Shown here: piece by piece, positions 4,298-33,670 of the stretch | Numbering within the stretch: position 1 is the stretch's first letter | Layout of the letters: each line of letters opens with the position of its first letter | Origin: Escherichia coli | GTDB taxonomy: Bacteria; Pseudomonadota; Gammaproteobacteria; Enterobacterales; Enterobacteriaceae | Strand: one strand, 5' to 3' | Length of the DNA: 64,000 nt | Assembly: GCF_013122565.1 (NCBI RefSeq) | Contig: NZ_CP053258.1 | The notes under the pieces: generated by a model | What the model was told of the DNA's origin: nothing | Seen by the model: only the letters and a program-made list of their open reading frames with translations | Databases searched by the model: none | Made by a program: the position numbers and the translations under genes

Positions 4298-4376
4298 CTG
4301 CCCCGTGCGACTGGTCAGCCAGCCGCTGCGATCATACGCAAAATGCCCCCATCCGCATGCAAGCAGTATTTATCCT

Positions 4377-4682
4377 TTAGGAAAAGAGATTTATAGCTTT
4401 CTCTTGAAGTTCTATACCTATATCCTCAAGTTTGATCAGCTCGTCCTTACTGTACATTCCCTCCCGAAAAGAAAACATTCCATATACATCCATTAGTGCC
4501 AATCCTAAAACTTTTGGAACCATAATTTCATCAGCATATATTTCCGCCAAAAAATCCAGCGCCTTATATAATTCTTCAATTTCATTATCAAAAAAATCTT
4601 TCTTGAGTCTTAATCTAACAGGTATTGAATCATCTCCTAATAATTTATCGACCACTATTTTCAATGCAATCTCTTTATCCAT
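4377..4682 (-). CDS. putative immunity protein for orphan rhs module 3
   Basis: 101 aa AT-rich ORF immediately downstream of the orphan toxin tip. Confidence 0.45.
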   Translation of the reverse strand: MDKEIALKIVVDKLLGDDSIPVRLRLKKDFFDNEIEELYKALDFLAEIYADEIMVPKVLGLALMDVYGMFSFREGMYSKDELIKLEDIGIELQEKAINLFS

Positions 4683-4698
4683 ATATCATTTCCTGTCT

Positions 4699-6315: not shown

Positions 6316-6488
6316 CTAGCTGTTCAGATGGTGAATTTAACTACACCTTCTGGTTATCACCGTATTCAAGTGCCGCGATGCAACTACTGGGAAACTACAC
6401 TCATTCTCTTATTATTTTTAGAAATTTTCATCTATTAAATAATACACATGACCGATATTATTTAACCCTGCTGGGTATAACTGAAAAA

Positions 6489-7340: not shown

Positions 7341-7359
7341 ATATTTCCCCTTAAATAAA

Positions 7360-8820
7360 TCAACACTCCCCCTTCACTCTAAAATCTTGATCTGAAACAT
7401 TTCCTGTATTTGGTGGTCGTTTTTCATTACTGGTTACTCCTCTTCCTCCATTTTTAGCTATTTTCATTGCCTCTAAATTATTTAGCCATTGTTTACTAAT
7501 TCCAGCATATTTATCAAAATTCAACGAATCCAACATTGCCTGAGTTAACTTTCCACTTCGGGCATGTTGCAACATTCTCTGATATAGATTTTTTGTTTGA
7601 CCTGCATACATTTTACCCGCACCTTCATCAAAAAACTCATAAATTGCTTGCCCTTTATATTTTGCAGTAACATCTCTTATTTGTTCTAAAAAATCACTAG
7701 CGAGTCTTACTAATCCCCAAGGATCAATCCACCTCAGCGGATTCGGCGCATACCTGTAAAGATTCAGCCCACCCCGGATCGAAATCGGGTCCTGGCTTAT
7801 GAACCTTCCGCACTCCGGCGCATAATACCTGAACAGATTGTAATGCAGCCCCGTCTCTTCATCATAATACTGCCCCGGCAGCCGCAGCGGTTGCTCAAAG
7901 TACGCCCCGCTGTTGCTGATGTCGCCCCGATTTTCTCCAAATCCCGCCTGGTAGCCCGCCCACACCAGCCTCCCGTCCGGCGCGGTCACCTCCTGTACCG
8001 TGCCCGTCAGGTCCGTGTGGTAATACCAGATTTTTTGACTCTCTCCGCGCCCGGTGATGGCCGCCACTGGCGTGTACGGCTGTTCCGCGTCGTACAGGTA
8101 TGTCCGCTTTCCCTGCCACGTTGTCTCCTGCAACAGCCGGAACCCTTCCCACACAAACGTCGTCCGCCGCTGTTCCCTCTGGACCGTATGGCGGCCATAT
8201 GTCGCCTTGCTGATGCGCCTGCCCAGCGCATCATACTGATACCGCGTCTCGCTGTTGCTGCTGATGACCCGCGTTAACTGGCCCTGCGCGTTCCACTCCA
8301 GTTGCTGGTCCCTGCGCTCTGTCAGTTCGCCCCATTCGTTATAGCGGTAACGGTCACGCCCGTAGCCCGGCAGGCGGTTATCCATCACCGCGCTCTGATA
8401 CTCGTCCGTCAGCAGATTGCCCGCTTTGTCGTAATAATAATGGTCATGGTCGTACATCTGCCCCGTGCGGCTGGTCAGCCAGCCGCTGCGGTCATACGCA
8501 AAGCGCACCGTGTCCGCCTGCATGTGGTGCAGCCGTTCCCCTTCTTTCGTCGGGGTGAGCGTCACTTCCGTTATCTGGTCAAGACGGTTGTAGCTGAAGG
8601 TCCGTGTACTGTGCTGCGTGTCACTGCGCAACAGGCGGCCCAGCGCATCACGCTCCTGCCGCTCATTACGCCCCCCGCCTTCTGTACCCTGCGTCTGGAT
8701 GATGACCGGATACCCGCCCGCATTCAGCGCCAAATGGCTGAGAGAAGCGGGATTTGAGATCGGCACGGGCGTTACCGTGAAGATCTCGGAGGGATGTCTG
8801 ATCCTGCTTGCGGATAACAA
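7360..8820 (-). CDS. orphan Rhs C-terminal fragment 2: core repeat, DPWGL, GIY-YIG-like tip
   Basis: About 1.1 kb rhs core homology; tip has AIYEFFDEGAGKMYAGQTKNLYQRMLQH; the first ~30 codons are antisense to the SymE-like remnant. Confidence 0.7.
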   Translation of the reverse strand: MLSASRIRHPSEIFTVTPVPISNPASLSHLALNAGGYPVIIQTQGTEGGGRNERQERDALGRLLRSDTQHSTRTFSYNRLDQITEVTLTPTKEGERLHHMQADTVRFAYDRSGWLTSRTGQMYDHDHYYYDKAGNLLTDEYQSAVMDNRLPGYGRDRYRYNEWGELTERRDQQLEWNAQGQLTRVISSNSETRYQYDALGRRISKATYGRHTVQREQRRTTFVWEGFRLLQETTWQGKRTYLYDAEQPYTPVAAITGRGESQKIWYYHTDLTGTVQEVTAPDGRLVWAGYQAGFGENRGDISNSGAYFEQPLRLPGQYYDEETGLHYNLFRYYAPECGRFISQDPISIRGGLNLYRYAPNPLRWIDPWGLVRLASDFLEQIRDVTAKYKGQAIYEFFDEGAGKMYAGQTKNLYQRMLQHARSGKLTQAMLDSLNFDKYAGISKQWLNNLEAMKIAKNGGRGVTSNEKRPPNTGNVSDQDFRVKGEC

Positions 8821-8914
8821 CGAAGTACAGGAACTGCGCAGGGAGCTTTATCAGGTTAAACAGGCAGTTAAGGGGATGCGGGACGGGATGTTTAGTGTGC
8901 TGAACGAAAGTTAA
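8729..8914 (+). pseudogene. SymE-like 3' remnant (last ~62 codons) fused to an rhs-fragment boundary
   Basis: Near-identical to 2497..2683; homology to the first copy starts abruptly at the junction with rhs-core sequence (~8728). Confidence 0.45.
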
Positions 8915-8922
8915 ATAATAAA

Positions 8923-8955
8923 AAAGCCGGGAAGGTAAATAAGCTTCCCGGCTTT
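8923..8955. terminator. bidirectional intrinsic terminator hairpin
   Basis: 12 bp perfect stem aaagccgggaag / cttcccggcttt with 9 nt loop, flanked by A-run and T-run. Confidence 0.6.
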
Positions 8956-8975
8956 CCACAACAATTTTAACTTAA

Positions 8976-9464
8976 TTAATCATAAGCATCGCCGTAATTT
9001 TCATATTTCCAATAAATATATTTACCACCTGAGCTATATAATTTATGCAATAATTCTGTAAAAGTCATTGCAATAATTGGACAACTACCTACAACGCCAT
9101 GTATCTCATAATTGCTATCATAACAGCGTCCATTTCTTTCTGTAGAAAAATCAATGGATAAATAATCATTATTATCGGTCCTGCAAATTAAGTACCATGA
9201 AGATGATATATCATCCTCACATGGCTCACCAACTATAAATTTATTTGCCTGTAATATTTCATTATTTTTCAAAATAGTGAAGGAGATTTCCTGCTCTTCA
9301 GAGCAAAACAATTTTATTCCATTACATATTTTGTAAAAACGAACAACATCATCAGGATATTTTAAATAATCAGATGGTAATAAAGGCAAATTACCATCTG
9401 GTGGAATAACTTCACATCTGTTATCATTTTTTATCAAGTCAAGTAATTCATCAATGCCATTCAT
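8976..9464 (-). CDS. putative immunity protein (SUKH-like) for orphan rhs module 1
   Basis: 162 aa AT-rich ORF downstream of the orphan tip; LLPSDYLKY...FYKICNG pattern. Confidence 0.5.
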   Translation of the reverse strand: MNGIDELLDLIKNDNRCEVIPPDGNLPLLPSDYLKYPDDVVRFYKICNGIKLFCSEEQEISFTILKNNEILQANKFIVGEPCEDDISSSWYLICRTDNNDYLSIDFSTERNGRCYDSNYEIHGVVGSCPIIAMTFTELLHKLYSSGGKYIYWKYENYGDAYD

Positions 9465-9473
9465 ATTACCACC

Positions 9474-11312
9474 TTAAAAAATAACAGTATCAAACTTCCC
9501 AGAGTATATAAACTGGTTCAATGCCCGGTAATATGCTTCCCTACTGGCAACAGGAACATTTGCGGCATCAAACATTCGTTCAGTAAGATCTTTCATTTCT
9601 CTGCTACTTACTGTTGTCCAATCCACTTTCCCACCAACTCTTCTTCCGGTTTTCTGCTCTAACCAATCTCTATATACTTTTTTTGTTGCAGCATGATTAG
9701 CCTCGGATAATGCAATTGTTGGTGACTTTGAAGGATATTTCCCTCCATAAGATGGCACATTCTTAGACATCCAAATATCAAGCACACCATGATGGTTTTC
9801 TAAAGAGGAATTAATTGGTCGATAAGGAACAACATCAAACTCTTTAACTTCACCGCACTTAAGTCCAAGGGGATCTATCCACCCCAGCGGATTCGGCGCA
9901 TAAGCATACTGGTTCAGCCCACCCGCCAGCCCTATCGGGTCCTGGCTTACGAACCGCCCGCACTCCGGCGCATAATACCTGAACAGATTATAGTGCAGCC
10001 CCGTCTCTTCATCATAATACTGCCCCGGCAGCCGCAGCGGCTGTTCAAAGTACGCCCCGCTGTTGCTGATATCGCCCCGGTTTTCGCCAAATCCCGCCTG
10101 GTAGCCCGCCCACACCAGCGTCCCGTCCGCCGCGGTCACCTCCTGTACCGTGCCCGTCAGGTCCGTGTGGTAATACCAGATTTTTTGACTCTCTCCGCGC
10201 CCCGTGATGGCGGCCACCGGCGTGTACGGCTGTTCCGCGTCGTACAGGTATGTCCGCTTTCCCTGCCACGTTGTCTCCTGCAACAGCCGGAACCCTTCCC
10301 ACACAAACGTTGTCCGGCTTCGTTCTCCCCGGTCCGTATGGCGGCCATATGTCGCCTTGCTGATGCGCCTGCCCAGCGCATCATACTGATACCGCGTCTC
10401 GCTGTTGCTGCTGATGACCCGCGTTAACTGGCCCTGCGCGTTCCACTCCAGCTGCTGGTCCCTGCGCTCTGTCAGTTCGCCCCATTCGTTATAGCGGTAG
10501 CGGTCACGCCCGTAGCCCGGCAGGCGGTTATCCATCACCGCTCCCTGATATTCATCCGTCAGCAGGTTGCCCGCTTTATCGTAATAATAATGGTCATGGT
10601 CATACATCTGCCCCGTGCGGCTGGTCAGCCAGCCGCTGCGGTCATAGCTGAACACCAGGCAACCGCGCAGTTTGTCATTGATGCCGCCGACTTCACCGTC
10701 TGCGTTCCAGATATAGTCCCGCGCTGTCACGCTGTCGCTGTGTGACGGGGGTGTGGCTGTCTGCTGTGGGTTCTGGCTGCCGCCTGGCAGGCTGCGCTGC
10801 CAGCTTAACCGGTTGTCGGCGTTGTAGCCGCTGAACGTCGCCAGTTTCCCCTGGGTGCGCATCACCTGACGGTGCAGACTGTCACGCTCATATTCACTGA
10901 CCGTGATACCGTCCAGTGCCGTCTGGAGCAGATGTCCGCTGCCGTAGTAAAGATGGCTGAGGTGCTGCCCGTTCGGTAACGTGATGTCGGTGGGATTGCC
11001 CAGCGCGTCACGCTGATATTTTATGCTGCCGTGCACGCTGTGCTCTGCCGTCAGCCACCCGCTGCGGTCATACGCAAAGCGCACCGTGTCCGCCTGCATG
11101 TGGTGCAGCCGTTCCCCTTCTTTCGTCGGGGTGAGCGTCACTTCCGTTATCTGGTCAAGACGGTTGTAGCTGAAGGTCCGTGTACTGTGCTGCGTGTCAC
11201 TGCGCAACAGGCGGCCCAGCGCATCACGCTCCTGTCGCTCATTACGCACCCCGCCTTCTGTACCCTGCGTCTGGATGATGACCGGATACCCGCCCGCATT
11301 CAGCACAAACAT
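9474..11312 (-). CDS. orphan Rhs C-terminal fragment 1: core repeat, DPLGL, unassigned toxin tip
   Basis: About 1.6 kb homologous to main rhs (to ~11476, where an in-frame stop precedes it); first ATG at 11312; tip ~130 aa with no recognizable motif. Confidence 0.7.
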   Translation of the reverse strand: MFVLNAGGYPVIIQTQGTEGGVRNERQERDALGRLLRSDTQHSTRTFSYNRLDQITEVTLTPTKEGERLHHMQADTVRFAYDRSGWLTAEHSVHGSIKYQRDALGNPTDITLPNGQHLSHLYYGSGHLLQTALDGITVSEYERDSLHRQVMRTQGKLATFSGYNADNRLSWQRSLPGGSQNPQQTATPPSHSDSVTARDYIWNADGEVGGINDKLRGCLVFSYDRSGWLTSRTGQMYDHDHYYYDKAGNLLTDEYQGAVMDNRLPGYGRDRYRYNEWGELTERRDQQLEWNAQGQLTRVISSNSETRYQYDALGRRISKATYGRHTDRGERSRTTFVWEGFRLLQETTWQGKRTYLYDAEQPYTPVAAITGRGESQKIWYYHTDLTGTVQEVTAADGTLVWAGYQAGFGENRGDISNSGAYFEQPLRLPGQYYDEETGLHYNLFRYYAPECGRFVSQDPIGLAGGLNQYAYAPNPLGWIDPLGLKCGEVKEFDVVPYRPINSSLENHHGVLDIWMSKNVPSYGGKYPSKSPTIALSEANHAATKKVYRDWLEQKTGRRVGGKVDWTTVSSREMKDLTERMFDAANVPVASREAYYRALNQFIYSGKFDTVIF

Positions 11313-11517
11313 CCGTATCAGACCGTCCGGGCGCTGTTCTCCCGTCAGCCGTCCGTCCGCATCGTGACTGAACCGGTAAAGCGCTCCGTTGCCGTTGCTC
11401 AGACTGGCAATCCATCCCTCCGCGGTATAATGCCAGCGCGTCTCCCGTTTCTCTTCATCCGTGTGGCACGCCAGTTAACATACGTCTACTGACAAAACCA
11501 TTAGTCCAAACAAAATC

Positions 11518-16474
<4,957 letters not shown>

Positions 16475-16497: not shown

Positions 16498-18711
16498 TTA
16501 TTCAGAAACGTCCGGGGTAGGTAACGGGGCAATATCATCCGCAGTCATGGCTGTGCCGCCATCCGGATTCATATCAATGCCACTGCCAATGAGTTGCATA
16601 ACATCGCTGGTGTGCAGTAAAAGTTGTTTTCCGCAAAACTCAATCGAGCCATCCTTGTGTAATACAAGCGCTGCATTGCCGCAACGAAGGGTAAATTGAT
16701 CGCCAACATCCAGACGATATGTCGTTCCGACATTGATGGTTTGAGCCAGTTTGACGGAAAGACCATCATTTTTTGTGATGGTGGCATTACGGTCTTCTCC
16801 CACGCTGATGGTTTCATTTTTGACAATGGTTTTTATGCGATCGACCATGACCGTGTGGGTTTCATTGTTTTTTACCGTGGTATTGAGGTCTTTTTCCGCA
16901 TGGAACTTCACCTCTTCTGCCCCCGTTTTATCGTCAAAGCGCAGCATGTTTCCGTTGGTCGGCCCGCCATACAGCGAGTGGCTGAATATCCCGCTCTGCG
17001 AGGCCATACCCGGCAGTCCCCACGGCGGCATGGTGTCCTGGTTATAGGTGCGCCCTACAATGATCGGTAAATCCGGGTCGCCGTTTTTGAAATCCACCAG
17101 CACTTCCTGACCGATGCGCGGGATCTGGATCATGCCGAATCCTTTCCCTGCCCACGGATAGCTGACGCGGATCCAGCAGGAGCTGTTTTCGTCATTATTA
17201 CCGTAACGATCCCAGCCAAACTGCACCTTCACCCGTCCATATTTGTCCGTCCAGATTTCCTGCCCCGCCGGGCCGGTGACGATGGCGCTCTGCGGGCCTT
17301 TGGTGTGGGGTTTGCTCAGGGTTCGCTGTGGGCGGTAAACTTCGCTGGTTGGGTGCAGTTCAAACGTGGTGACATAGGTAAAATGCTGATCCTGGCCGCT
17401 GTGCTGCGCATTGTCCCGTAAAAACAGCGTGGTCTGTACCAGCAGGTATTCCTGATTAATTTCTGCCGTCGGGTGATTCATCAATGTAAAGGTGTACCCG
17501 GTCATGAGGGTACGGATATGACCGGCCCCATGTGCCCGGCTGCCTGGGCTACGCTGCGCTTCCATACGAATACGCGTCAACATCTCGCCTTCGCCCGTAG
17601 TGAAGTAATCACCAGGCCATTCGTAATGCTCGTATTCAGCATGACCGGTATCACGCGGACTGGCCACGGTACTTTTAAGCAGCGAACGAGGCTTCATAAA
17701 ATCAAAATCGTCCATCACCCACTTTCCAGTACGCAGCCTCTCACTGGCCGTAATGGTGTGAATAAATTCCTTATCCAGTTTCAGCCCTTCCTGGTGCCAC
17801 TCCACCAGTGGCGAGTCAGGGCACGCTTTATGACCATTGATGGCATCCGCCAGCACCAGCGTGTGGCTGTTCTCGCTGTGCTCAAACCACCAGTAAATTC
17901 CCCACTCCTGCATCAGGCGCTGGATGAAATCAAAATCCGTTTCACCGTACTGTACCTGCCAGGCACGAGGTGGATAATTTTCCACCAGCCGTTTTTCCAC
18001 CGGAAAGGAATATTCATCCAGTACTTCATCGAGAATATCCACCACGGTTTTATTCTGGAACGCTTTGTAGTCGCTGGTGTGGGTCAGCAGTTTCAGCCAC
18101 GGTTCAATGCGTAATTCATACGTTACCGAGCGGCCCTCATGGCCCACCACCCGCGCCGCTGTCACCAGCCCGCTGATATGCCGTTTGCCGCCGCCGTCCA
18201 GTTCGATATTGACGCACAGATCTTTGCCCACCATGGGCTGAAGCGGCAGGTTAGCAGCGGGGGAAACGTACCCCAGGTTCAGGGCGTCCGGCGTTTTAAG
18301 CTGTACTGTGTAGGAAAACAGATTCCCAAGCCCTTCCGAACCATTCATGCCTGCAAACAAAAGCATCTGCGGCGGCACCGCACTACCACTTACTGTGACG
18401 TTATGCGCCCCCGGACCACCTGCAGCAAGCGACGCCGCCGCATCCTGAACTGCACCAGCCATATCCGATATCCCTGCTGCGGCGGCTGCGGCTTGCGCAG
18501 CAGCTACTGCGGCTTTAACCAGACCTGACGGTTCCGGCAACGCACCAAACAGGTCCGCCGCTGCCTGTTCTACCATCTGCTCGGCTGCATCAGCTACATC
18601 GGTTGCGGCTGAACCAGGGCTTATACCACCACTTTCGCCAGCTATTGGTGGTGTGGTGATGACGGGTCCACCGTTTCCAACTGGTTTATTACCCGTAGAT
18701 ACAAAACTCAT
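16498..18711 (-). CDS. vgrG: VgrG spike protein (TssI) with ~95 aa Ala/Gly/Pro-rich N-terminal extension
   Basis: gp27/gp5-like motifs ([39 protein letters not shown]); AAGGAG RBS 7 nt before ATG at 18711. Confidence 0.9.
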
Positions 18712-18735
18712 GATATTTGCTCCTTTAATACCGGA

Positions 18736-19122
18736 TTAAAATCTAGCCCCTGGTGGCCAAAAAATATAAGTAATAACTCTCCATTGCCCGTCTTTATAAT
18801 GAAACCAACATGTCAGATTCAAATCCCCCTGCAAATTCCAGAACATTTCCTTAATAGGAACATCTTGAAATTCAGGATCTGTTATGCGATAAGTTTGATT
18901 CAAGCCGATATAATACTCACCAACAAATTTATATCGTGGCCTCACGAACTCATGAGCAGGCGGCCCATATTTTTTCATAAAAAAGATGTCATTACTTCCA
19001 TCATGTATATCATTTTCTTCATAATATTTGGTGGATTGAGCAACTGCAGAAGGCTTGAAAACATTCACTGTAGTTATGTAAGTTATTGAAAGAAAAATCA
19101 CTATAATGCAGAAAAATTTCAT
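18736..19122 (-). CDS. putative secreted immunity protein for HExxH effector 1
   Basis: 128 aa with N-terminal signal peptide; paralog of 20819..21181; overlaps effector stop. Confidence 0.5.
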   Translation of the reverse strand: MKFFCIIVIFLSITYITTVNVFKPSAVAQSTKYYEENDIHDGSNDIFFMKKYGPPAHEFVRPRYKFVGEYYIGLNQTYRITDPEFQDVPIKEMFWNLQGDLNLTCWFHYKDGQWRVITYIFWPPGARF

Positions 19123-19820
19123 TTGGTTACATTCAATAAAGTAAATTTAGTTTCAGGCATTATGACATTCAACGTTATAGTTGCGTTTTTAAGGTATCGT
19201 TCCCGAAGCTCCATTCCCACATTCATCAACCCACTAATATCTCCAACATACGGAGACGAAGAATCATAATCATCATCTAAGTAACCAAGTACATGTCCGG
19301 CTTCATGAGGTATATTTACTTGCAACGTATTGTTACAGTTAATACATTTCGCTACTTTTTCCAGGTCCGCTGAATCAACATGAACCGTACTGTTTTTAAA
19401 ATCAACATATGTTCTTAAATCAGCACCAGGCAAAACCTTTGTTGCAATAACCAACCAGTCTTCATTCTGAGATGCAGAAATTATTCTTACATCAAAAGGC
19501 AAAGCTTTACCCTGAAATTTTTTAGCGAACTCAGATTCACCGGAAACAGAATAAGTTATTTTCCCATTCCATGCCTGCTGAACAGATAAATATATCGCTC
19601 GCATAAAAATAGCTTTTTCCCATATAGTCCAGTCATCTGTAACGGTATTATCCTTATACCACTCATACTTCCATCTTATCACAGCCGTAATCGAACCAGT
19701 ATTTTGATTTAATAAATACGTCCTCCTACCATCCTTATGTATAATGATATCGCCATCAATATTTGTTTTTTCATAGTATTCGGCCAGCAAACTATTCTCA
19801 TCATATTTAAGCTTGGTCAT
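19119..19820 (-). CDS. putative T6SS effector 1, HExxH zinc-metallopeptidase-like
   Basis: 233 aa, no signal peptide; HEAGHVLGYLDDDY motif; paralog of 21178..21984 (shared ALMNVGMELRERYL). Confidence 0.55.
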   Translation of the reverse strand: MTKLKYDENSLLAEYYEKTNIDGDIIIHKDGRRTYLLNQNTGSITAVIRWKYEWYKDNTVTDDWTIWEKAIFMRAIYLSVQQAWNGKITYSVSGESEFAKKFQGKALPFDVRIISASQNEDWLVIATKVLPGADLRTYVDFKNSTVHVDSADLEKVAKCINCNNTLQVNIPHEAGHVLGYLDDDYDSSSPYVGDISGLMNVGMELRERYLKNATITLNVIMPETKFTLLNVTK

Positions 19821-19879
19821 TTTACTCTCATTAAATAATAATTATTTGTATCGAAAATATTATTTTATATATTACGAGT

Positions 19880-19905
19880 ATTGCCCCTTCAGCCGCAGCG
19901 CATCC
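19880..19905. repeat. short remnant of the tagF 3' coding end
   Basis: cagccgcagcgcatccacataccg matches tagF 3' end at ~23275..23300. Confidence 0.5.
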
Positions 19906-20032
19906 ACATACCGTCCTTCACTGCAGGGCAAGATTACGAAAGCCCGCCCCCCGCAAGGACTGACGCGAGGTAGTTTCTGTCCATGGCTGCTTTTCTCATC
20001 TTACGTCTTAACCCTGCCTTGGTTTCGCCGTA

Positions 20033-20794
20033 CTACACCTGCCAGGCGCGGGGGGGATAATTTTCCACCAGCCGTTTTTCCACCGGAAAGGAATATTCAT
20101 CCAGTACTTCATCGAGAATATCCACCACGGTTTTATTCTGGAATGCTTTGTAGTCGCTGGTATGGGTCAGCAGCTTCAGCCATGGCTCAATGCGTAATTC
20201 ATACGTTACCGAACGGCCCTCATGGCCGACCACCCTCGCCGCCGTCACCAGCCCGCTGATATACCGTTTTCCGCCACCGTCCAGTTCAATGTTGACGCAC
20301 AGGTCTTTGCCCACCATGGGCTGAAGCGGCAGGTTAGCAGCGGGGGAAACGTACCCCAGGTTCAGGGCGTCCGGCGTTTTAAGCTGTACTGTGTAGGAAA
20401 ACAGATTCCCAAGCCCTTCCGAACCATTCATGCCTGCAAACAAAAGCAGCTGCGGCGGCACCGCACTACCACTTACTGTGACGTTATGCGCCCCCGGTCC
20501 ACCGGCAGCAATCGACGCCGCCGCATCCTGAACTGCACCAGCCATATCCGATATCCCTGCTGCGGCGGCTGCGGCTTGCGCAGCAGCTACTGCGGCTTTA
20601 ACCAGACCTGACGGTTCCGGCAACGCACCAAACAGGTCCGCCGCTGCCTGTTCTACCATCTGCTCGGCTGCATCAGCGACATCGGTTGCGGCTGAACCAG
20701 GGCTTATACCACCACTTTCGCCAGCTATTGGTGGTGTGGTGATGACGGGTCCACCGTTTCCAACTGGTTTATTACCCGTAGATACAAAACTCAT
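20033..20794 (-). pseudogene. truncated vgrG 5' duplicate (first ~253 codons with identical RBS and start)
   Basis: Near-identical to 17950..18711 including the Ala-rich extension; homology ends ~20025. Confidence 0.7.
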
Positions 20795-20818
20795 GATATT
20801 TGCTCCTTTAATACCGGA

Positions 20819-21181
20819 TTAAAATTTGGATCCTGGCGGCCAATAAACTCGGGATATAACTATCCATTTACCATTTTTATAATGAAGCCAACATGTTAAA
20901 TTTAGATCTTTATTAACATTCCAAAACATCTCCTTAATAGGAACATCTTTAAATTCAGGATTATTTGAAGGGTAAGTCCGTTCTATGCCACCATAATAAA
21001 TACCTACAAAATCATGCCTTGGGTTTATAAAATAATGTTCAGGAGAACCATATTTTCTCACTAGTGAATCTTCATCATCCCCCCACTGAACATCTTTGTT
21101 ATGCATCTCACTGGCAAAAATATCTAGAGTTACAAGCAATATCAATAACGTAAAAAATAGAGCGATTTTCTTCTGGATCAT
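20819..21181 (-). CDS. putative secreted immunity protein for HExxH effector 2
   Basis: 120 aa with signal peptide; C-terminal region paralogous to 18736..19122. Confidence 0.5.
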   Translation of the reverse strand: MIQKKIALFFTLLILLVTLDIFASEMHNKDVQWGDDEDSLVRKYGSPEHYFINPRHDFVGIYYGGIERTYPSNNPEFKDVPIKEMFWNVNKDLNLTCWLHYKNGKWIVISRVYWPPGSKF

Positions 21182-21984
21182 TTTATTACACTCGCAACAG
21201 AAAACGTAGTTAAGGGATATACTAAATTCAAGTCAATACAGACACCTTCCAGGTAGCGTTCCCGAAGTTCCATCCCAACATTCATTAACGCGGCAGTATC
21301 TATTTTATATTTAGACACAGGCTTACCAAACTTATCAAGTTCATATTCATCCTCCAGATAACGAATCATATGTCCAATTTCATGAACTATATTTACCTGA
21401 TAAAAACCACATATTGACTGATTCTCTGGAGCACATTTTTCTGATAACGAAGTATCTTTAAAATAAAAATGAGCAAACCGATTTTTCCAGTTAACATAAG
21501 GCCTGCCATCATCATTACCAGGAACGGTTCTTAATACGTCTACATTCCAGTGTTCTTTTTGATGGACCGGAATCATATTTATGCTGAAAGGCAATCTTTT
21601 ACTCTTGAATTTCTCAGCAAAATCAGAGTCCCCTGAGACAGATAAAAATATCTTATCATTCCATCCATAACAGATTGCAGAAAATGATTCATATATAAAA
21701 CTAACTTCATCCAGGTATGTCCAGTTATCTCCTACATTGTTCTGATTCACCCAGTTAAATTTCCATCTCATTAATAATGCAATGTCGCCTGTATCACTAT
21801 TCAGGATATATTCGCCATGTTCTGTATTCATCCTGAGACACTTCCCATCTTCTACGGTGTCAGGGCAAAACTTATGCATGAGTTTAATAAAGAATTCATG
21901 CGATAGATTTATTTTACTCTCTCCAACAACACCATCTACATGTGTTGTGAGCGAACCAGATTTATTCCCTGAAGAAGAACTCAT
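21178..21984 (-). CDS. putative T6SS effector 2, HExxH zinc-metallopeptidase-like
   Basis: 268 aa; HEIGHMIRYLEDEY motif; paralog of 19119..19820. Confidence 0.55.
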   Translation of the reverse strand: MSSSSGNKSGSLTTHVDGVVGESKINLSHEFFIKLMHKFCPDTVEDGKCLRMNTEHGEYILNSDTGDIALLMRWKFNWVNQNNVGDNWTYLDEVSFIYESFSAICYGWNDKIFLSVSGDSDFAEKFKSKRLPFSINMIPVHQKEHWNVDVLRTVPGNDDGRPYVNWKNRFAHFYFKDTSLSEKCAPENQSICGFYQVNIVHEIGHMIRYLEDEYELDKFGKPVSKYKIDTAALMNVGMELRERYLEGVCIDLNLVYPLTTFSVASVIK

Positions 21985-22180
21985 GCTATTGACTCCTTTA
22001 ATACTGGGGTAGAGATTTAGCCCACGACAGTCGTATTCCTGTTTTTTACATCCAATAAAATAGAATATTAATAAATTAGGATAATATTTTTACTTTACTC
22101 ACTCTACTTTCAATCTGAGTTCTCCGTACAATCGGGTTCTGACATTGAACCTTCCGACTGAAATACACCACTCCCCCCTC

Positions 22181-22294
22181 TATCCAGTCGCAACGCATCC
22201 ACATACCGCCCCCTTGCTGTTCTGCTGCCAGAACCATCCATGCCCCTGCTGCGCCTGCGTTAACATTTTTGCTAGCCAGCACGGTCACGGCAGG
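22181..22294. repeat. ~115 bp duplicate of the tagF 3' coding end
   Basis: Near-identical to 23271..23385; lies between the Tge/Tgi pair and HExxH effector 2. Confidence 0.6.
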
Positions 22295-22311
22295 CAATTC
22301 CATGACATGTA

Positions 22312-22773
22312 CTACTCATCCGTACAACCCAGCCCCCGGCGCTGAACCACTTCACTGGCAAACGTTGCTCCGGTTTTTTTCATTATTCCCTGCTGGATTT
22401 TTTGTAACTCCGGGTATACAACCCGCTCACATTCATTTATTTCCCATATGTCACCCGTCTTAGGACTAACCGAAAACAACCCTAAATAGTCTGTTGCTCC
22501 AGCAGTCGGCGTATCATAGCCAAGACTAAAATCATAATATCCGGGATGAGGCGCATTGCCCTGACCATCCTGTAAATCTCCATCAATAAAAATCCCTTCC
22601 AGCGATAAATTATACTTTTGGTGCCTGAGTACAATAATAAGCAGTTTTTCCGCCTGTGCTTTCGTCATCCCTTCGCGGTTTATATCTGATAAATTAAATT
22701 CAGACGTATTCCCCTGAACGTAGCAAACCGCAGAGGCAAGAAGAAAAAAAACAAATATTATTTTACGGGGCAC
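22312..22773 (-). CDS. putative secreted immunity protein (Tgi-like)
   Basis: 153 aa with signal peptide; immediately downstream of and overlapping the glucosaminidase-like gene. Confidence 0.5.
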   Translation of the reverse strand: MPRKIIFVFFLLASAVCYVQGNTSEFNLSDINREGMTKAQAEKLLIIVLRHQKYNLSLEGIFIDGDLQDGQGNAPHPGYYDFSLGYDTPTAGATDYLGLFSVSPKTGDIWEINECERVVYPELQKIQQGIMKKTGATFASEVVQRRGLGCTDE

Positions 22774-23228
22774 GCCATTCTCCTTCCGACCATAATAATA
22801 ATGTCAGCAGTTTTTTTGGCATAATTATCTGTTCCGCCTGTGCTACTATCTCCAGAATTAAATCCGGCCTTTACCAGAGCATCACAGAAAGCCAAAGCAT
22901 CCTTTATGTCTCTGGCTGCATTACCATATTTTATTGCAAAAGATCGTGCACAGATTGAAAAAGACGGAAAAGTAGCCACCCGGGTTTTCTTGTTACCGTG
23001 CGGACGGATTTCGCCTGACTGAAATGATGCAGGGGCATGCAGGGAGAAATAGTTGTTATATTCCCTGGCAATACGGCCTGTACCATACTGGCTCTCCGCC
23101 GCGGCAAGCCCCAGAATATTTTCCACAGGAACATTAAGTTGTTTAGCGATTAATTCACATTCTTTCAGATGCTGCTGAACAAACCTTACTGCATTAACAT
23201 CATTACAGGCTTTGTCATAAGACCCCAT
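22758..23228 (-). CDS. putative peptidoglycan glycoside-hydrolase effector (FlgJ/GH73 glucosaminidase-like, Tge-like)
   Basis: 156 aa, no signal peptide; ILGLAAAESQYG and NNYFSL resemble the FlgJ glucosaminidase motifs. Confidence 0.55.
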   Translation of the reverse strand: MGSYDKACNDVNAVRFVQQHLKECELIAKQLNVPVENILGLAAAESQYGTGRIAREYNNYFSLHAPASFQSGEIRPHGNKKTRVATFPSFSICARSFAIKYGNAARDIKDALAFCDALVKAGFNSGDSSTGGTDNYAKKTADIIIMVGRRMACPVK

Positions 23229-23255
23229 GATCCACTACTCCTTATCTGATTATTT

Positions 23256-24029
23256 TTAATGCTGCCGGATATCCAGCCGCAACGCATCCACATACCGCCC
23301 CTCGCTGTTCTGCTGCCAGAACCAGCCCTGCCCCTGCTGCGCCTGCGTCAGCATTTTGTCCGGCCAGCCCGGCCACGGCAGGTGGCGCACACCGGGCAGT
23401 TCCACTACCGGCACGTCCGGCAGGCCGGTGAGTTCCCGGCTACGCTGCGGTACACGTCGTAAGCCGCGTAGCCACTGCGCCCAGCGCGGCCCCGGTCGCC
23501 ACATCGCCCAGAGCTGGTCTGTCTGCTCCGCCAGTCGACCGCAGCGTTCTGTCTGTGGTGAGACATGAGCTGCCGTCAACTGCGCCAGCCAGTACAGCCA
23601 GCCCTTTGTGTCATCCAGGCTCTCTTCCAGCCATTCCCGCCCGGCACGCTGGTAAATCACCAGTGGCCACGACCTGCCCGTACTGTCACGTGAGGCGGTC
23701 AGCACCCCGGTCAGCCACTCATCGCGCCCGCCAATGGGGAGAAATCCCGGCGATAATACAAAGCTCCACGGTAGCGGATGGTGTTCCGGCACCTCCGTTT
23801 TCTCGCGCGGTGACAGGTGCATCCAACCGTCATTTACTCCGGTTTTCGCAGCATCCGTTCCTTCCGGCAGAACAATATGCCGCCCCTGTCCCAGCCACGT
23901 CTGCTGGTTCAGCCACGCCTGCCACACCTGCCCATCGTTCGCGCTCACCCGCCAGCGCACGTAGTCCCGCTGATCCGGCAGTCTGCCGAACATCGCCGGA
24001 ACCGATACCACCGCAGCCCGGCGCATCAC
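23256..24029 (-). CDS. tagF: type VI secretion-associated protein TagF (DUF2094)
   Basis: 257 aa; FGRLPDQRDYV N-terminal motif; overlaps tssM stop. Confidence 0.75.
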   Translation of the reverse strand: MMRRAAVVSVPAMFGRLPDQRDYVRWRVSANDGQVWQAWLNQQTWLGQGRHIVLPEGTDAAKTGVNDGWMHLSPREKTEVPEHHPLPWSFVLSPGFLPIGGRDEWLTGVLTASRDSTGRSWPLVIYQRAGREWLEESLDDTKGWLYWLAQLTAAHVSPQTERCGRLAEQTDQLWAMWRPGPRWAQWLRGLRRVPQRSRELTGLPDVPVVELPGVRHLPWPGWPDKMLTQAQQGQGWFWQQNSEGRYVDALRLDIRQH

Positions 24030-27000
24030 AGCGCTCGCTCCGGGCAGGCGAAGCGTTGCAGTAGCCCACGGTTCACCGGGTCAAAATCCCGTCCTGCGGT
24101 GATTTCCAGCACCACCCGCCGCCCGTCAAAGCTATATTCAACCTGCTGTGTTCCCCGTACCGCCGTCTCCTGCGCGTTACCCGCATCCAGCAGGTGAAAC
24201 AGCGCCCACGGTCCGTTAGTCAGCAGCGTCGAGGTGTCCTGGCGGATGCGCGGGCTGGCGGTGATTTCCGCCATTGAGCCGTTGCGCGGCCCCGGCCAGT
24301 TCACTTTCAGCGGTCTGACCGGGCCGTGAGCGTAACGCAGCACCTGACCGTCGATATCAATCACCAGTTCAGTGATTGCAGGGTCCATATCCACGACGCG
24401 GACCTGCATCGCCCAGGAAAACTTTTTCCCGCCTTCACCGTTAAAAAAAACGCTGCGGATCTGTTTCGCCTCCTGAAACGGCGTCAGGTCCGGCCCCTGT
24501 AAGGTCATGTTGCCTTCGGTCGGTTTGTAGCGCCACGGGTTGCTGGCGGTGTCCGCCAGCGGGGCCAGTTGCTTCGTCCAGAACGCATCCAGCACACCGC
24601 CGCTGGCAAAGATATGGTTAAAATCGTCCGCGCTGACCTCCTGCGGGCTGTCGGTAAAGGGGTAGCGCCCGTCAATAGCATCACGGCACTCATCGCCAAT
24701 CACCGCTTCCATCTGCGCGTTCAGCACTTCACCGGTGCCGGCGTTGATTTTGCGCGTTCCCTGCTGCGTGAGATCCAGCAAAATATTTTTCAGCGGTGCG
24801 GGCAGTTTTGCCGCCTCCAGTTGCAGTTTATCCGCCGCCGAAATACGGCCAGGTAATGTGCTCGCTGCCAGCGCGCTGTCGGCGATGGTGAGCTGGGTGT
24901 AATATTCATTGAGCATTGTCAGCAGCGAATTTAACTGCGGCGCGCCACCAGTCTGCCCGCTGTCTGTCCGCCCGGAAACCACTTCCCGCAAGGCGGCGAA
25001 ACGGTCATCCACCAGTGATTTCTCCAGCCGCTCTTCCGGGTGGATGTCCTGTAACAGCTTTGCCGTCTGCCCCGCTTTTCCCACATTGCCGGAGAGCCGG
25101 TCCTGCGCACGCTGGGCCATCTGCTTTTGTCTGGCCTGCGCATCCAGCGGCGGCACCAGCGTGGTCTGCTCCACCACCGCTTTACTCAGGCGCATCAGCG
25201 GGGAATCCGGCGAGGCCAGGGTACGCAGCACCTGAAGGTCATACGCCAGCCCGGGACTGCCGTCTTCCCCGGCACTGTTGATGCTGTGAATACTTGCCAG
25301 AAAATCCTGCCAGCGGCGGGCATATTCAGCCAGGTACAGGCGGCGTACCTCACGGGTAACCGGGAGTTCCTGCCCCGGCAACTGGCTCATCACAATATCC
25401 GTTGTTTTTTTTTGCGCGTTTTCCCGGCCCATCACCCAGGCATCGTCCGCTGATGCGGCTGCGACAAACTCCGACAGCCGTTTGTCGAACAGTTCCCGGT
25501 AGCCTTCGCGAGTGAAGATGCCGGGCACGCCCCTATCCAGCGGCGCGCCATCCGTGCGGACAAAAACCGTTCCCGCATCCGCGCCCACAGCGCGAACCAG
25601 CGAAAACTCCTGCGGTGCTTCGCTCTCCATGGAAGCCAGGGCTCGAGTGTAGATACGCTCGGTGCTGGTATGGCCGTCAAGGAAGGCTCGCGCCTGGCGG
25701 ATCAGCCCCTCATCTTTTTCCCAGGGCGAATGCACCACGCGGCTGCCGTCAAACAGGGCATCGATATGCTCCAGCACGGCGGCGCGACCGCCGAACTCCG
25801 CCACGCTGTCGCGGTTGTCCAGGTCGTTCAGCACCCAGGCGTGGATCTCCGCCGCGTTGTATTTATCCTCGTGGTCCTTATCGAGGTTCAGCAACAGATA
25901 AACATGCAGGGCGTCATAGGCGGCTTTGCTGTCCTGACGCGCAATCGCATCCGAAAGCACGTATTCCATGCGTTTCACCAGCGGTGGCAGCAGTAACTGG
26001 TCCAGCAGGCGGTCATACAGGGATGCGACGCTCTCCATCACCGGCGGAACGCTGTAAAGACCATAACGCCAGGCCAGCGGCGGCGAGTCCGGGTCCAGTC
26101 CCGGCCAGGCAGAGAGCGCCCGTGCCTGGTTCAGCAGGGCCGGAACAGGCTGCATAGCAGGTTTTCCGGTATAGGCTTTGACATCACCATCCAGTTGGGT
26201 CGTCCGGCTGGCGATTTCATTCAGATAACCGCTGTTACCCTGCTGGCTGCCCTGCATTCCCTGCCACAACCAGAAAGCCAGCGCCAGTACCAGCAGATGC
26301 CCGCCAGTGCGCAGCAGGCGGTAACGCCAGGCCCACTGAAGGTTCGGCTCCACCAGGTGCGCTTCGCGGAAGATAAACTGCGTCAGTAGATCGTGCAGGA
26401 AATAGCTGCGGTTGCCGTCCGGCAGGGTATGGGATGGGGAATCAGCCTTCCCTTTGATAGCACGGACAAAACGCTGCCAGATGCCCGTCTTGTCAGCCAC
26501 GGCGTCTGCCTGCGCCTGCGCGGCGCTGGTAAAAAATACGCCGCGCAGGGTGTTGTTAAGCTGGGTGGCGTCAAATTTTGAATCGAGGAAAATCTGCTCA
26601 ATGGCTTCCAGCAGCGGCGCACCCAGCGCGGCAAATTCACGCGGGAAGCGATAGAGCCGCTGGCGGCTTTTAAGGTCGTACTCTTCCTGCAACCGGGTAT
26701 CCAGCCCCTGATCCAGCCGCAGGGTCAGGTTTGCCAGTTCCTGGCTACAGAGCGCATGCAGCGACTGCGGATCGCTGGCGTGACGCCTGCGGCTGTATGG
26801 CAGAGTAAAGCCCCAGACCTGGGCGCGCAGGTGGCTGGTCAGCCCGTGGAAATACTCCGTAAAGCCCGGCAGCAGATCCATCTTGGTGACAACCAGATAG
26901 ACCGGAAAACGAATACCCAGCGTCTCCCGCAGTTCCGCCAGCCGCGCACGCAGGGCCGCACAGGCAGCCAGCCGTTCCGCCGGGGACTGCGCAGTCAGAT

Positions 27001-27892
27001 CCGCCACGTTCAGCGTCAGGATCACGCCGTTGAGCGGTGCGCCGGGGCGGTGTTTACGCAGCAGTCCCAGAAACCCGTGCCACTCCCCGGCGTTGCGCTG
27101 GGTCGCGCTGATTTCGCCACCGTCATCGTGACGGGCATAGCGCCCGGCGGTGTCAATAAGCACTGCTTCGTTGGTAAACCACCAGTCGCAATGCAGCGTT
27201 CCGCCGCCCGGCACGGTGAGGATATGCGCGGTTTGCTCCATCTGCTCCGCCAGCGGAAACTGCAATCCGGTGTTGAGCAGTGCTGTGGTTTTACCGTCGC
27301 CGGGGCTACCGATAACCATGAACCAAGGCAGTTCGTACAGAAAACGTTTTCCTTCCAGTACGTTACGCCAGCCCGGCAGGTCTACGCGCAGCTGTTTCAG
27401 TTGCCGAATAGCGCGAGTGACAATATGGCTGACGGTGCGTAAGTCGGCTTTAATTTCCCCGGCCACCGGTACGTCTTCCCCGCGCGGATGCAGGAAACGG
27501 CGCAGCAGTTGTTCGTCCAGACGCAGCGCCCGCCACAGCCGGTACAGGCCATACAGCGCATAAGACAGAAGGATCAGGCCGATAAGCGTCAGACGCAGCC
27601 ACAGCGGCGCAAATGGATGAACATCACCGAAAGCCAGCAACGGTGAGACAAAGCCGATAACCAGGCACAGAACCGTAACGCCAATGATGCTCATAGACCA
27701 GTTAACCAGCCACAGTGCGAGGAACATCAGTAACAGAACGATGGTGACTAACCGACTTCCCACGGACGCGAGTGGATGCAGGGTGTCAAACGCGACCAGC
27801 GGCCCAATAAACCAGACCAGCAACGCCAGCATTACCAGGCCAACAATGGCCAGCGCGCGGCGGGAAAACAGCATACTGAGAAATTTTTGCAT
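24026..27892 (-). CDS. tssM: T6SS membrane-complex protein TssM (IcmF)
   Basis: 1288 aa; N-terminal transmembrane helices, Walker A GSPGDGKTT, large periplasmic domain. Confidence 0.9.
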   Translation of the reverse strand: MQKFLSMLFSRRALAIVGLVMLALLVWFIGPLVAFDTLHPLASVGSRLVTIVLLLMFLALWLVNWSMSIIGVTVLCLVIGFVSPLLAFGDVHPFAPLWLRLTLIGLILLSYALYGLYRLWRALRLDEQLLRRFLHPRGEDVPVAGEIKADLRTVSHIVTRAIRQLKQLRVDLPGWRNVLEGKRFLYELPWFMVIGSPGDGKTTALLNTGLQFPLAEQMEQTAHILTVPGGGTLHCDWWFTNEAVLIDTAGRYARHDDGGEISATQRNAGEWHGFLGLLRKHRPGAPLNGVILTLNVADLTAQSPAERLAACAALRARLAELRETLGIRFPVYLVVTKMDLLPGFTEYFHGLTSHLRAQVWGFTLPYSRRRHASDPQSLHALCSQELANLTLRLDQGLDTRLQEEYDLKSRQRLYRFPREFAALGAPLLEAIEQIFLDSKFDATQLNNTLRGVFFTSAAQAQADAVADKTGIWQRFVRAIKGKADSPSHTLPDGNRSYFLHDLLTQFIFREAHLVEPNLQWAWRYRLLRTGGHLLVLALAFWLWQGMQGSQQGNSGYLNEIASRTTQLDGDVKAYTGKPAMQPVPALLNQARALSAWPGLDPDSPPLAWRYGLYSVPPVMESVASLYDRLLDQLLLPPLVKRMEYVLSDAIARQDSKAAYDALHVYLLLNLDKDHEDKYNAAEIHAWVLNDLDNRDSVAEFGGRAAVLEHIDALFDGSRVVHSPWEKDEGLIRQARAFLDGHTSTERIYTRALASMESEAPQEFSLVRAVGADAGTVFVRTDGAPLDRGVPGIFTREGYRELFDKRLSEFVAAASADDAWVMGRENAQKKTTDIVMSQLPGQELPVTREVRRLYLAEYARRWQDFLASIHSINSAGEDGSPGLAYDLQVLRTLASPDSPLMRLSKAVVEQTTLVPPLDAQARQKQMAQRAQDRLSGNVGKAGQTAKLLQDIHPEERLEKSLVDDRFAALREVVSGRTDSGQTGGAPQLNSLLTMLNEYYTQLTIADSALAASTLPGRISAADKLQLEAAKLPAPLKNILLDLTQQGTRKINAGTGEVLNAQMEAVIGDECRDAIDGRYPFTDSPQEVSADDFNHIFASGGVLDAFWTKQLAPLADTASNPWRYKPTEGNMTLQGPDLTPFQEAKQIRSVFFNGEGGKKFSWAMQVRVVDMDPAITELVIDIDGQVLRYAHGPVRPLKVNWPGPRNGSMAEITASPRIRQDTSTLLTNGPWALFHLLDAGNAQETAVRGTQQVEYSFDGRRVVLEITAGRDFDPVNRGLLQRFACPERAL

Positions 27893-32831: not shown

Positions 32832-33287
32832 TCATTCACATATTAAAGATACGGGTTTCTCCCTTGGTGGTTCATCGAAATAAAGAGTCTTACAGGAATG
32901 AGTATTTACAGGTACTGGCTGAGATAACCAGACCAGTCCGTAGCTATAAATACAGGAAAACCAGTATCTGTCGCTCTCTTTCGCTGTCGCGCCTTCTGTA
33001 TTCCATATCAACCATGTTTCCTGTTTTATTTTTTTCATCTCTGGCTTCTGATCGCCAAAATTTTCCGGTTTATCCTGTGTGACACTAATATGCGTTAACC
33101 ACTGACGAGGCTCCTGCCGTGGGGAAACTCTCCATTGCGGCTGGACAAATGATTTCAGAACCGCGGTGTAAGGCTCCGTTTCAACAAAAACAGGACAAGT
33201 AACTTCCCATGCCGACACATTTTGTGCATAAAACAAGGCAACACCAGAAAGAAGCAATACAGGAAAGCGCATCATCGTACCTTCCAT
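32832..33287 (-). CDS. putative secreted immunity protein (Tai-like)
   Basis: 151 aa with signal peptide, directly downstream of the amidase-like gene. Confidence 0.5.
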   Translation of the reverse strand: MEGTMMRFPVLLLSGVALFYAQNVSAWEVTCPVFVETEPYTAVLKSFVQPQWRVSPRQEPRQWLTHISVTQDKPENFGDQKPEMKKIKQETWLIWNTEGATAKESDRYWFSCIYSYGLVWLSQPVPVNTHSCKTLYFDEPPREKPVSLICE

Positions 33288-33670
33288 TATTCAATTACAT
33301 AAAATGCTTCAGCATTACTGCTGGCGCTGGGATACGAACCGTCAGAGTTTGCTCCGCCTTTCGGTCTGAGTTGATGTTTTTCGATTCTGATCTGCGTTCT
33401 CCACTGATCCATAACCCAGATCCCTCGTTTATCCTGCCCCAGATAGAATGCAGCATGATTACCTGAACTCCTGCCAGGCCATCGCCCATTAAAAAAAGTG
33501 GCAATAGCGGTACCTTTTGGAATGGTGGTGTCCCCCCACACTTTCTTACCCGCACGCCATGTTGCTGTGGAGCCAAGATGTGCATACCTTTTAACCAGAG
33601 TTACACACTCACCATCCCCCACTAATGGCTGCCCCTGTAATAAATCCACTGATTCATAAACTCGCGACAT
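33287..33670 (-). CDS. putative Cys/His papain-fold peptidoglycan amidase effector (Tae-like)
   Basis: 127 aa; candidate catalytic Cys (GECVTLVKRY) and His (NHAAFY) about 60 residues apart; sits between tssC and hcp where SPI-6-type islands carry tae/tai. Confidence 0.5.
   Translation of the reverse strand: MSRVYESVDLLQGQPLVGDGECVTLVKRYAHLGSTATWRAGKKVWGDTTIPKGTAIATFFNGRWPGRSSGNHAAFYLGQDKRGIWVMDQWRTQIRIEKHQLRPKGGANSDGSYPSASSNAEAFYVIE

Follow-up and report, generated by a model that had tools for sequence, protein, structure and literature searches.

What are the small gene pairs that lie between tagF and vgrG in a chromosomal type VI secretion system (T6SS) cluster of Escherichia coli, and how did two related pairs come to stand there in tandem? 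The DNA in question (the window; 64,000 nucleotides of contig NZ_CP053258.1, assembly GCF_013122565.1) holds a complete cluster, encoding TssB, TssC, Hcp, TssJ, TssK, TssL, TssM, TagF, ClpV, TagK, TssF, VgrG and PAAR-Rhs. All genes and gene fragments of the window described below are on the minus strand. Within the tagF-vgrG interval are two genes encoding HExxH proteins, here denoted E1 (19119..19820; 233 amino acids) and E2 (21178..21984; 268 amino acids). Each overlaps by 4 bp the gene of a signal-peptide protein: E1 is followed by I1 (18736..19122; 128 amino acids) and E2 by I2 (20819..21181; 120 amino acids). We propose, with a probability of roughly 0.7, that E1 and E2 are T6SS-delivered, periplasm-acting, metzincin-like zinc peptidases and that I1 and I2 are their cognate periplasmic immunity proteins. 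The best explanation of E1/I1 and E2/I2 is that they are two alleles of one antibacterial T6SS effector/immunity family.

Results

E1 and E2 belong to a widespread family of putative zinc peptidases

An initial annotation had described two paralogous cytoplasmic HExxH proteins of 233 and 268 amino acids, each followed by a paralogous signal-peptide protein. Both are indeed present: E1 and E2, neither of which has a hydrophobic N-terminus, show 39% identity (E 3e-55), and I1 and I2 show 44% (E 8e-42). The peptide given as common to the two enzymes has to be corrected. A common string exists, and it reads LMNVGMELRERYL (13 amino acids) instead of ALMNVGMELRERYL; the residue preceding it is Ala in E2 and Gly in E1.

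Pfam yielded no match to E1, E2 or I2 even at E <=10, NCBIfam, PADLOC and PHROGs gave none for the enzymes or their partners, and single-sequence searches of the Protein Data Bank (PDB) returned none for the enzymes. A word-indexed homologue search detected only six relatives of E2. A profile search of 1.84 billion representative proteins retrieved 551 clusters, counted at 50% identity, at E <=1e-3, of which 242 were at E <=1e-10. The members belong to Proteobacteria, Bacteroidota, Myxococcota and Planctomycetota, and every one of them is uncharacterised. The typical relative is a stand-alone protein of ~215 amino acids without a signal peptide, carrying the motif HEFGH.

The family alignment of 120 sequences showed that H172, E173 and H176 (E1 numbering) are invariant and that G175, D183, E184, Y185, D194, G202, R206 and R208 are at least 90% conserved. 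E1 carries HEAGH at residues 172-176, D183-D-Y185 and LMNVG at 198-202; the corresponding segments of E2 are HEIGH at 201-205, D212-E-Y214 and LMNVG at 233-237. The conserved Asp of the DEY motif is found 7 residues past the second His in both proteins. Of 117 family sequences scored, 33 have the first acidic residue of the [DE][DE]Y match at +6 and 17 have it at +7, with loop insertions in most others. The position three residues after the second His is Gly in E1 and in the family consensus (HEFGHxxGN), and Arg in E2. Further downstream, typically 16 residues past DEY, is the segment S[I/L]MNxG; MNxG is present in 86 of the 120 sequences and the spacing of 16 in 57.

The catalytic core spans ~210 amino acids. 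Structure prediction assigned to it the elements of a metzincin catalytic domain, a five-stranded sheet with a backing helix, an active-site helix and a C-terminal helix. The E2 model agrees on this fold, and the predicted fold neighbours are metzincins, not thermolysin-like enzymes. In addition, the family profile weakly matched the motif region of the igalysins (MEROPS M64), matching 3P1V (E 0.009) and the IgA protease of Thomasclavelia ramosa in an alignment covering HEFGHxxGxxxDEY. The HExxH proteins are very probably zinc metallopeptidases, judging by their predicted fold, by the extended motif and by conservation within the family. We envisage them as minimal metzincin-type zinc endopeptidases, made in the cytoplasm without a signal peptide, in which zinc would be bound by both His residues of HExxH and by the DEY Asp. 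The HExxH Glu would serve as the general base, the DEY Tyr is likely to act as a 'tyrosine switch', and S[I/L]MN, ~16 residues past DEY, is the likely Met-turn.

Comparison with an 88%-identical allele gave dN/dS values of 0.11 for E1 and 0.18 for I1, demonstrating that both genes are under purifying selection. E2 is intact and its set of conserved catalytic residues is complete. The start of E2 (21978..22004) is a 27-mer copy, with 3 mismatches, of the vgrG initiation region (0 expected; 100 shuffles), so that E2 begins with a third, diverged vgrG ribosome-binding site and start codon. MSSSSGNK at its N-terminus resembles the MSFVSTGNK of VgrG, and the first ~24 residues of E2, predicted to be disordered, are absent from E1 and from the Salmonella homologue. 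Because the start copies the vgrG initiation region and these residues are missing in the relatives, E2 appears to owe its N-terminus to a very small remnant of vgrG.

The partners are exported and accompany the enzymes across phyla

Judged by eye, the N-termini of both I proteins show the typical n-h-c pattern of a signal sequence (MKFFCIIVIFLSITYITTVNVFKPSAVA ahead of QS and MIQKKIALFFTLLILLVTLDIFA ahead of SE). We examined eight family loci outside E. coli, one from Salmonella and seven more distant, and checked the downstream gene at five of the distant ones, namely Flavobacterium sp. 1355 and four contigs on which the enzyme is fused to LysM, fused to PG_binding_1 or unfused. Targeted profile searches detected an I1/I2 homologue overlapping the 3' end of the enzyme gene at all five loci (E 1e-11 to 6e-6), and by eye all five partners carry an N-terminal signal peptide, lipobox or transmembrane segment. 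A signal-less enzyme whose partner is consistently exported is the mark of a toxin that acts in the periplasm, together with its immunity protein. The earlier view of effector/immunity-type pairs within a T6SS cluster is thus supported by the genomic context and by exported partners that co-occur with the enzyme across phyla. According to our model, Sec would export I to the periplasm of the producer, where it would bind and block incoming E.

Inspection of 20 immunity-family sequences, including I1, I2, those of contigs L004, L007, L011, L012 and L013, and P0182-P0191, showed that the last residue is Phe in every case, across Enterobacteria, Flavobacteria and Alphaproteobacteria-like contigs. 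In the enterobacterial members a conserved W-x-W...W-P-x-G-like segment precedes it. Since all inspected immunity proteins end in Phe, the sequences suggest that the C-terminal tail may enter the active site, which the conserved Phe may plug. A broader proposal is speculative and rather unlikely to hold: that the family represents phylum-spanning minimal metzincins acting as interbacterial cell-envelope toxins, the first of metzincin type, and that immunity is conferred by insertion of a Phe-carboxylate tail as a product mimic, in a manner akin to carboxypeptidase inhibitors and new for T6SS immunity.

The family is linked to T6SS genes in three lineages and to cell-wall domains

Three lineages show linkage to T6SS genes. 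The E. coli and Salmonella pairs occupy the tagF-vgrG interval, and every copy examined (the window, L001, L002, L008, L009 and L010) is inside a T6SS cluster. In Flavobacterium the pair directly follows tssD (hcp), with vgrG 3 kb downstream and a weak match to DUF4280 (PAAR-like) 7 kb downstream. On contig L003 it follows a DUF2169 gene, with Tox-PAAR-like and TsiV genes nearby.

In some relatives the catalytic domain is fused to one of three mutually unrelated peptidoglycan-binding modules, an N-terminal LysM in at least three (E <=0.001), an N-terminal PG_binding_1 in one and a C-terminal OmpA-like domain in one. The only sensible reading of a LysM domain on a protein that lacks an export signal is that the periplasm is reached by a non-Sec route. 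The identity of the fused domains points to the cell wall as the site of action and would suit a scissile bond in a peptidoglycan stem peptide as well as one in a wall-tethered protein. We propose that the Hcp/VgrG projectile carries E as cargo into the periplasm of a neighbouring cell, and that E would there cut peptidoglycan stem peptides or a peptidoglycan-tethered envelope protein.

A LysM-fused member and its immunity homologue were also observed between ftsZ and ftsA, on the opposite strand, in a division and cell wall (dcw) gene cluster (L012:10001-11217; GCA_043553855.1, CP121336.1), a striking place for a putative cell-wall toxin module.

The tandem array was assembled by recombination

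The initial annotation had interpreted the array as a duplicated unit whose effector and immunity genes diverged. The sequences on both sides of the cassettes argue against this. A block of 797 bp (17939-18735 and 20022-20818) is repeated at 96.7% identity, with 5 mismatches in the first 500 nucleotides and 21 in the last 297, whereas nucleotide identity is 55% between E1 and E2 and 59% between I1 and I2. The block extends from the end of the immunity gene through the vgrG ribosome-binding site and start, as had been recognized; it begins a few codons before the immunity stop codon and not at the stop. Both I genes end 24 bp short of a vgrG start. Copy 1 comprises the 5' 773 bp of the full-length vgrG (16498..18711; 737 amino acids; TIGR03361, E 2e-166) together with the upstream spacer. 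Copy 2 (20022..20818) comprises the I-vgrG spacer and a vgrG 5' fragment, a pseudogene that is annotated as incomplete in related strains. Its open reading frame (ORF; 20033-20794) ends after 253 codons, close to where the truncation had been placed before, with TAG instead of CAG (Gln254). Homology to the full-length gene runs 12 nucleotides past this TAG, to 20022, and the fragment holds only the first 140 residues of the gp27-like domain (TIGR03361 positions 7-139 of 513).

The other side of the cassettes bears remnants of the 3' end of tagF. Upstream of E2 is a 114-bp remnant (22181..22294; 89% identical, blastn E 3e-37), annotated in related strains as an N-terminally truncated pseudogene, and upstream of E1 is one of 34 bp (19890..19923; 88% identical, blastn E 2e-8), which encodes EGRYVDALRL, a sequence also present at the C-terminus of TagF. 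Between the latter and the vgrG breakpoint are 98 bp of filler (19924..20021) outside the homology to contig L010, the tagF-vgrG region of strain 06-00048. Part of this filler is annotated as an incomplete hypothetical pseudogene in related strains.

Other strains carry simpler arrangements. Strain 06-00048 has the order tagF, E1-type, I1-type, vgrG; it is homologous to the window from vgrG through E1 up to exactly position 19923, beyond which its sequence enters tagF. L001 has only the E2 unit, and strain VE-T9 equals the window minus a 2,083-bp unit. Two further strains keep the junction of the vgrG fragment with E1 and have a third allele, E3/I3 (244 and 123 amino acids), in place of E2/I2. 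E2 is 99.9% identical to the copy in strains in which it is the sole such cassette, directly upstream of a full vgrG. Among 5,426 complete E. coli genomes, about half match parts of 18000-23300, mostly the vgrG part; none has the arrangement of the window over at least 80% of the length of this region. E1-I1 is present in 34 of these genomes and E2-I2 in 3, and the two never occur together.

In-situ duplication followed by divergence was rejected in view of the gap in identity between flanks and cargo, the tagF scars and the single-cassette strains. Because of the same identity gap, the tagF remnants at both cassettes and the single-cassette strains, we conclude that recombination built the array by adding a second allele that already differed from the first. 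Recombination in the tagF/vgrG flanks adds or swaps cassettes, each of which arrived with a piece of tagF and with vgrG, and the vgrG fragment is a scar of this process. In the sequence of events that we favor, strains with different cassettes would have recombined at the tagF-vgrG hotspot by one crossover in shared flanking sequence and a second, illegitimate one, so that the incoming cassette would be added, not swapped, leaving behind the vgrG 5' fragment and the tagF 3' remnants.

A tandem of such pairs was also observed in Salmonella enterica serovar Okatie, within Salmonella pathogenicity island 6 (SPI-6; L008:6709-11091). The order there is a Tgi2PP-family gene, a 243-amino-acid E, I, a gap, a second 243-amino-acid E, I, a gap, DcrB and PAAR-Rhs, and the second E is 56% identical to E2. 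No vgrG is called in the gaps of 1.5-2 kb, which may hold vgrG fragments or pseudogenes.

Other genes of the cluster

The order of genes on the minus strand is tssM, tagF, a glucosaminidase gene, its partner, E2, I2, the vgrG 5' fragment, E1, I1, the full vgrG, a chaperone gene and PAAR-Rhs. Upstream of the variable region are tssM (24026-27892) and tagF, the conserved flank of the region (23256..24029; TIGR03373, E 5e-10; annotated with a TagF domain in related E. coli genomes). GC content is 33-36% in the cassettes as against 54-65% in core genes, which marks the cassettes as foreign. In a scan of 18600-23300 for promoters and terminators, the number of promoter-like sites fell below chance expectation and that of terminator-like sites equalled it.

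The first cassette of the array encodes a glucosaminidase-type candidate effector (Tge2-like; 22758..23228; 156 amino acids), with weak FlgJ/glucosaminidase NCBIfam matches and the RefSeq name 'glucosaminidase domain-containing protein'. It overlaps the gene of its candidate immunity protein (22312..22773; 153 amino acids), which has an N-terminal hydrophobic leader and no NCBIfam family match. Because the Salmonella gene at the same position carries Pfam T6SS_Tgi2PP, these two genes (22312-23228) are probably a Tge2/Tgi2-type pair. The sequence of the glucosaminidase cassette diverges among E. coli strains; over 22404-23104, megablast gave no match to L002 or L009.

Downstream of the full vgrG is a gene for a DcrB/DUF1795-type (Eag-like) chaperone (16031..16474; RefSeq 'DcrB-related protein', with Pfam DcrB at the equivalent Salmonella position). 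It would serve the PAAR-Rhs toxin encoded next (11871..16010; 1379 amino acids; RefSeq 'RHS repeat-associated core domain-containing protein'), a cargo genetically tied to the full vgrG, whose Salmonella equivalent has prePAAR, PAAR and RHS Pfam domains. The C-terminal tip of PAAR-Rhs (11871-12100) reads by eye like the HAE...CxxC zinc motif of a nucleotide deaminase toxin. Further downstream (2730-11877) are four N-terminally truncated Rhs C-terminal fragments of 612, 486, 538 and 375 amino acids, each with the Rhs core motif; the small unannotated ORFs between them are presumably immunity genes, making this a classic orphan Rhs array. In VgrG itself, ~110 residues with a high content of Ala, Gly and Pro precede the gp27-like domain as an N-terminal extension (18380-18711 in the full gene, 20463-20794 in the fragment); the TIGR03361 match begins at residue 112. 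Elsewhere in the cluster, between tssC and hcp (32832-33670), are genes for a BPSL0067-family protein (127 amino acids, E 7e-48) and then a STY0301-family protein (151 amino acids). They form another small pair of effector/immunity type, which may be akin to Tae2/Tai2.

Discussion

The locus can also be explained in other ways, and some observations weigh against T6SS-delivered metzincin-like effectors with cognate immunity. E2 has Arg where Gly is expected, three residues past the second His, and the putative Met-turn has Leu, Ile or Gln in place of Met in a minority of family members. We know of no metzincin that cleaves peptidoglycan. PG_binding_1 is also found in the pro-domains of matrix metalloproteinases, making that fusion ambiguous. 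In five distant contexts (L004, L011, L012, L013 and a JGI contig) no T6SS gene was found within 6-10 kb, so that T6SS dependence is no more than putative for the wider family; the pairs there stand alone among housekeeping genes, one of them between ftsZ and ftsA. These contexts would suit a genuine toxin/immunity module that is not T6SS cargo, exits by lysis, vesicles or another secretion system, and sits in the T6SS cluster only because this is a recombination hotspot. We consider this quite improbable: the pair adjoins hcp, vgrG, DUF2169 or PAAR-like genes in three independent lineages, all examined E. coli and Salmonella copies are inside a T6SS cluster, and cargo effectors are often unlinked to T6SS genes, as are Tse1-3 of Pseudomonas aeruginosa. 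A further difficulty is the dead vgrG fragment after E2/I2, with its internal TAG; delivery of E2 may need the distal vgrG or Hcp, or else E2/I2 may be kept mainly for immunity. Taken to its end, the latter would make E2-I2 and the vgrG fragment a fossil, in which E2 lost its delivery partner when the second cassette arrived and the unit was kept since I2 guards against neighbours armed with E2 (orphan immunity). Stacked orphan modules are typical of such loci, as the four orphan Rhs fragments of the window illustrate. This account is unlikely, given that E2 is intact with its catalytic residues and virtually identical to copies that are the sole cassette upstream of a full vgrG; moreover, the 5' ends of the two vgrG genes are nearly identical, so that a VgrG-dependent E2 could use the distal VgrG, and an Hcp-dependent E2 would need none.

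Two other roles for the enzymes seem far less probable. Being encoded near tagF and tssM, with relatives that carry peptidoglycan-binding domains, E could be a self-acting wall remodeller that lets the T6SS cross the peptidoglycan of the producer, like TagX or the recruited MltE, with I as its regulator. It is, however, the partner and not the enzyme that has an export signal, the genes are rare accessory genes (34 and 3 of 5,426 genomes, although about half match the vgrG region), the alleles are highly polymorphic and low in GC, and the two-gene module is mobile and also occurs far from any T6SS; in view of rarity, polymorphism and the exported partner, a peptidoglycan hydrolase of T6SS assembly was rejected. 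The least probable of all is a metzincin effector directed at host proteins of eukaryotes: a co-conserved exported partner is the defining trait of antibacterial effectors, relatives carry fused domains with affinity for bacterial peptidoglycan, and the family is also present in free-living marine and soil bacteria.

If T6SS delivery of a metzincin-like toxin is confirmed, a metzincin-type protease would join the periplasm-acting T6SS toxins, which are mostly cysteine amidases, glycoside hydrolases and lipases with one gluzincin family. A widely conserved inhibitor family would come along, and the LysM, OmpA-like and PG_binding_1 relatives indicate the cell wall. The locus also demonstrates how the tagF-vgrG region gains cassettes, by additive recombination that leaves vgrG and tagF scars; earlier work in Salmonella noted the variability without explaining it. 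For E. coli, Shigella and Salmonella, the 'hypothetical proteins' of 233, 244 and 268 amino acids could be given the annotation of candidate T6SS metallopeptidase effector, and their partners that of candidate immunity protein. The T6SS locus of the window is otherwise ordinary, and the enzyme/inhibitor family that it holds is widespread and uncharacterised. Our literature search found no metzincin-type T6SS effector and no description of these genes in E. coli; the only relevant prior mention is a list of Salmonella candidates, on which the search found no experimental work.

These candidates come from variable region 2 of SPI-6, downstream of tssM/tagF, which holds Tge2/Tgi2 and Tlde1/Tldi1 (PMC10469887). 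The initial annotation had called effectors upstream of vgrG unusual. The tssM/tagF-to-vgrG interval is this known variable region, in which periplasm-acting pairs have been reported (PMC10469887), and the window has a Tge2-like pair in the same interval, so the position is normal for this type of cluster. The bioinformatic survey of Blondel et al. (2023) lists two 243-amino-acid candidates there, SESEF3709_03438 ('Reprolysin_4') and NCTC7411_03656 ('Peptidase_M64'), each with a periplasm-targeted partner; they rest on HHpred only and are called 'amidases', without experiments or analysis of fold, family or immunity (PMC10469887). Compared by locus, length and labels, they are very probably of the same family as E1 and E2. 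They are located downstream of tssM/tagF and upstream of tssI/vgrG, have the length of the two Okatie homologues, bear labels that agree with the weak Reprolysin and M64-motif matches of the E family, and are bicistronic with a small signal-peptide or transmembrane protein. That survey describes neither the E. coli alleles nor their tandem, with its scars of vgrG and tagF, nor the E-I family as it occurs across phyla (PMC10469887).

In mode of action the closest parallel is the Tpe/Tpi family, comprising the VgrG2b C-terminal metallopeptidase with PA0261 in P. aeruginosa and Tpe1/Tpi1 in Acinetobacter baylyi (Wood et al. 2019, PMC6899460). Tpe, an HExxH zinc peptidase delivered by the T6SS, shows toxicity in the periplasm alone, and the gene immediately downstream encodes the immunity protein that neutralises it, itself exposed to the periplasm; candidate substrates of Tpe are peptidoglycan-machinery proteins and lipoproteins (PMC6899460). 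It is a thermolysin-like gluzincin, MA(E), with a distant Glu (E983) as the third zinc ligand (PMC6899460), whereas the predicted fold neighbours of E are metzincins, MA(M), its third ligand is likely the DEY Asp, and the immunity families are unrelated. PDB sequence searches with the E proteins gave no match to VgrG2b. Membership in Tpe/Tpi was rejected, as E has neither a predicted gluzincin fold with its distal Glu nor homology to the VgrG2b C-terminus or Tpe1; by analogy, the E family would work like Tpe without being a member of it.

The extended zinc motif is reminiscent of the igalysins (M64), namely the T. ramosa IgA protease and the Bacteroides structures 3P1V and 4DF9. In the T. ramosa IgA protease the third zinc ligand is the Asp of this motif, a tyrosine switch is proposed for the Tyr and C-I-M-R forms the Met-turn (PMC12237041). 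The E family has in common with them HExxH followed by DEY, with a likely Asp ligand and an adjacent Tyr, and has a putative Met-turn of the x-I-M-x type. Igalysins differ in a catalytic domain of 270-313 amino acids, compared with ~210 in the E family, and in a structural second zinc site of Cys residues that the E family lacks; E, for its part, would be a cytoplasmically made toxin with an immunity partner. The Pfam M64 model gives no match, and membership in M64 was rejected.

As an array, the locus resembles the orphan toxin/immunity arrays of Rhs, CdiA and T6SS auxiliary loci, which similarly grow by recombination in conserved flanks and keep truncated 5' or 3' fragments beside displaced cassettes. 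Here, in contrast, the scars derive from the 5' part of vgrG and the 3' end of tagF, and the displaced cassette retains a complete effector gene instead of a toxin tip.

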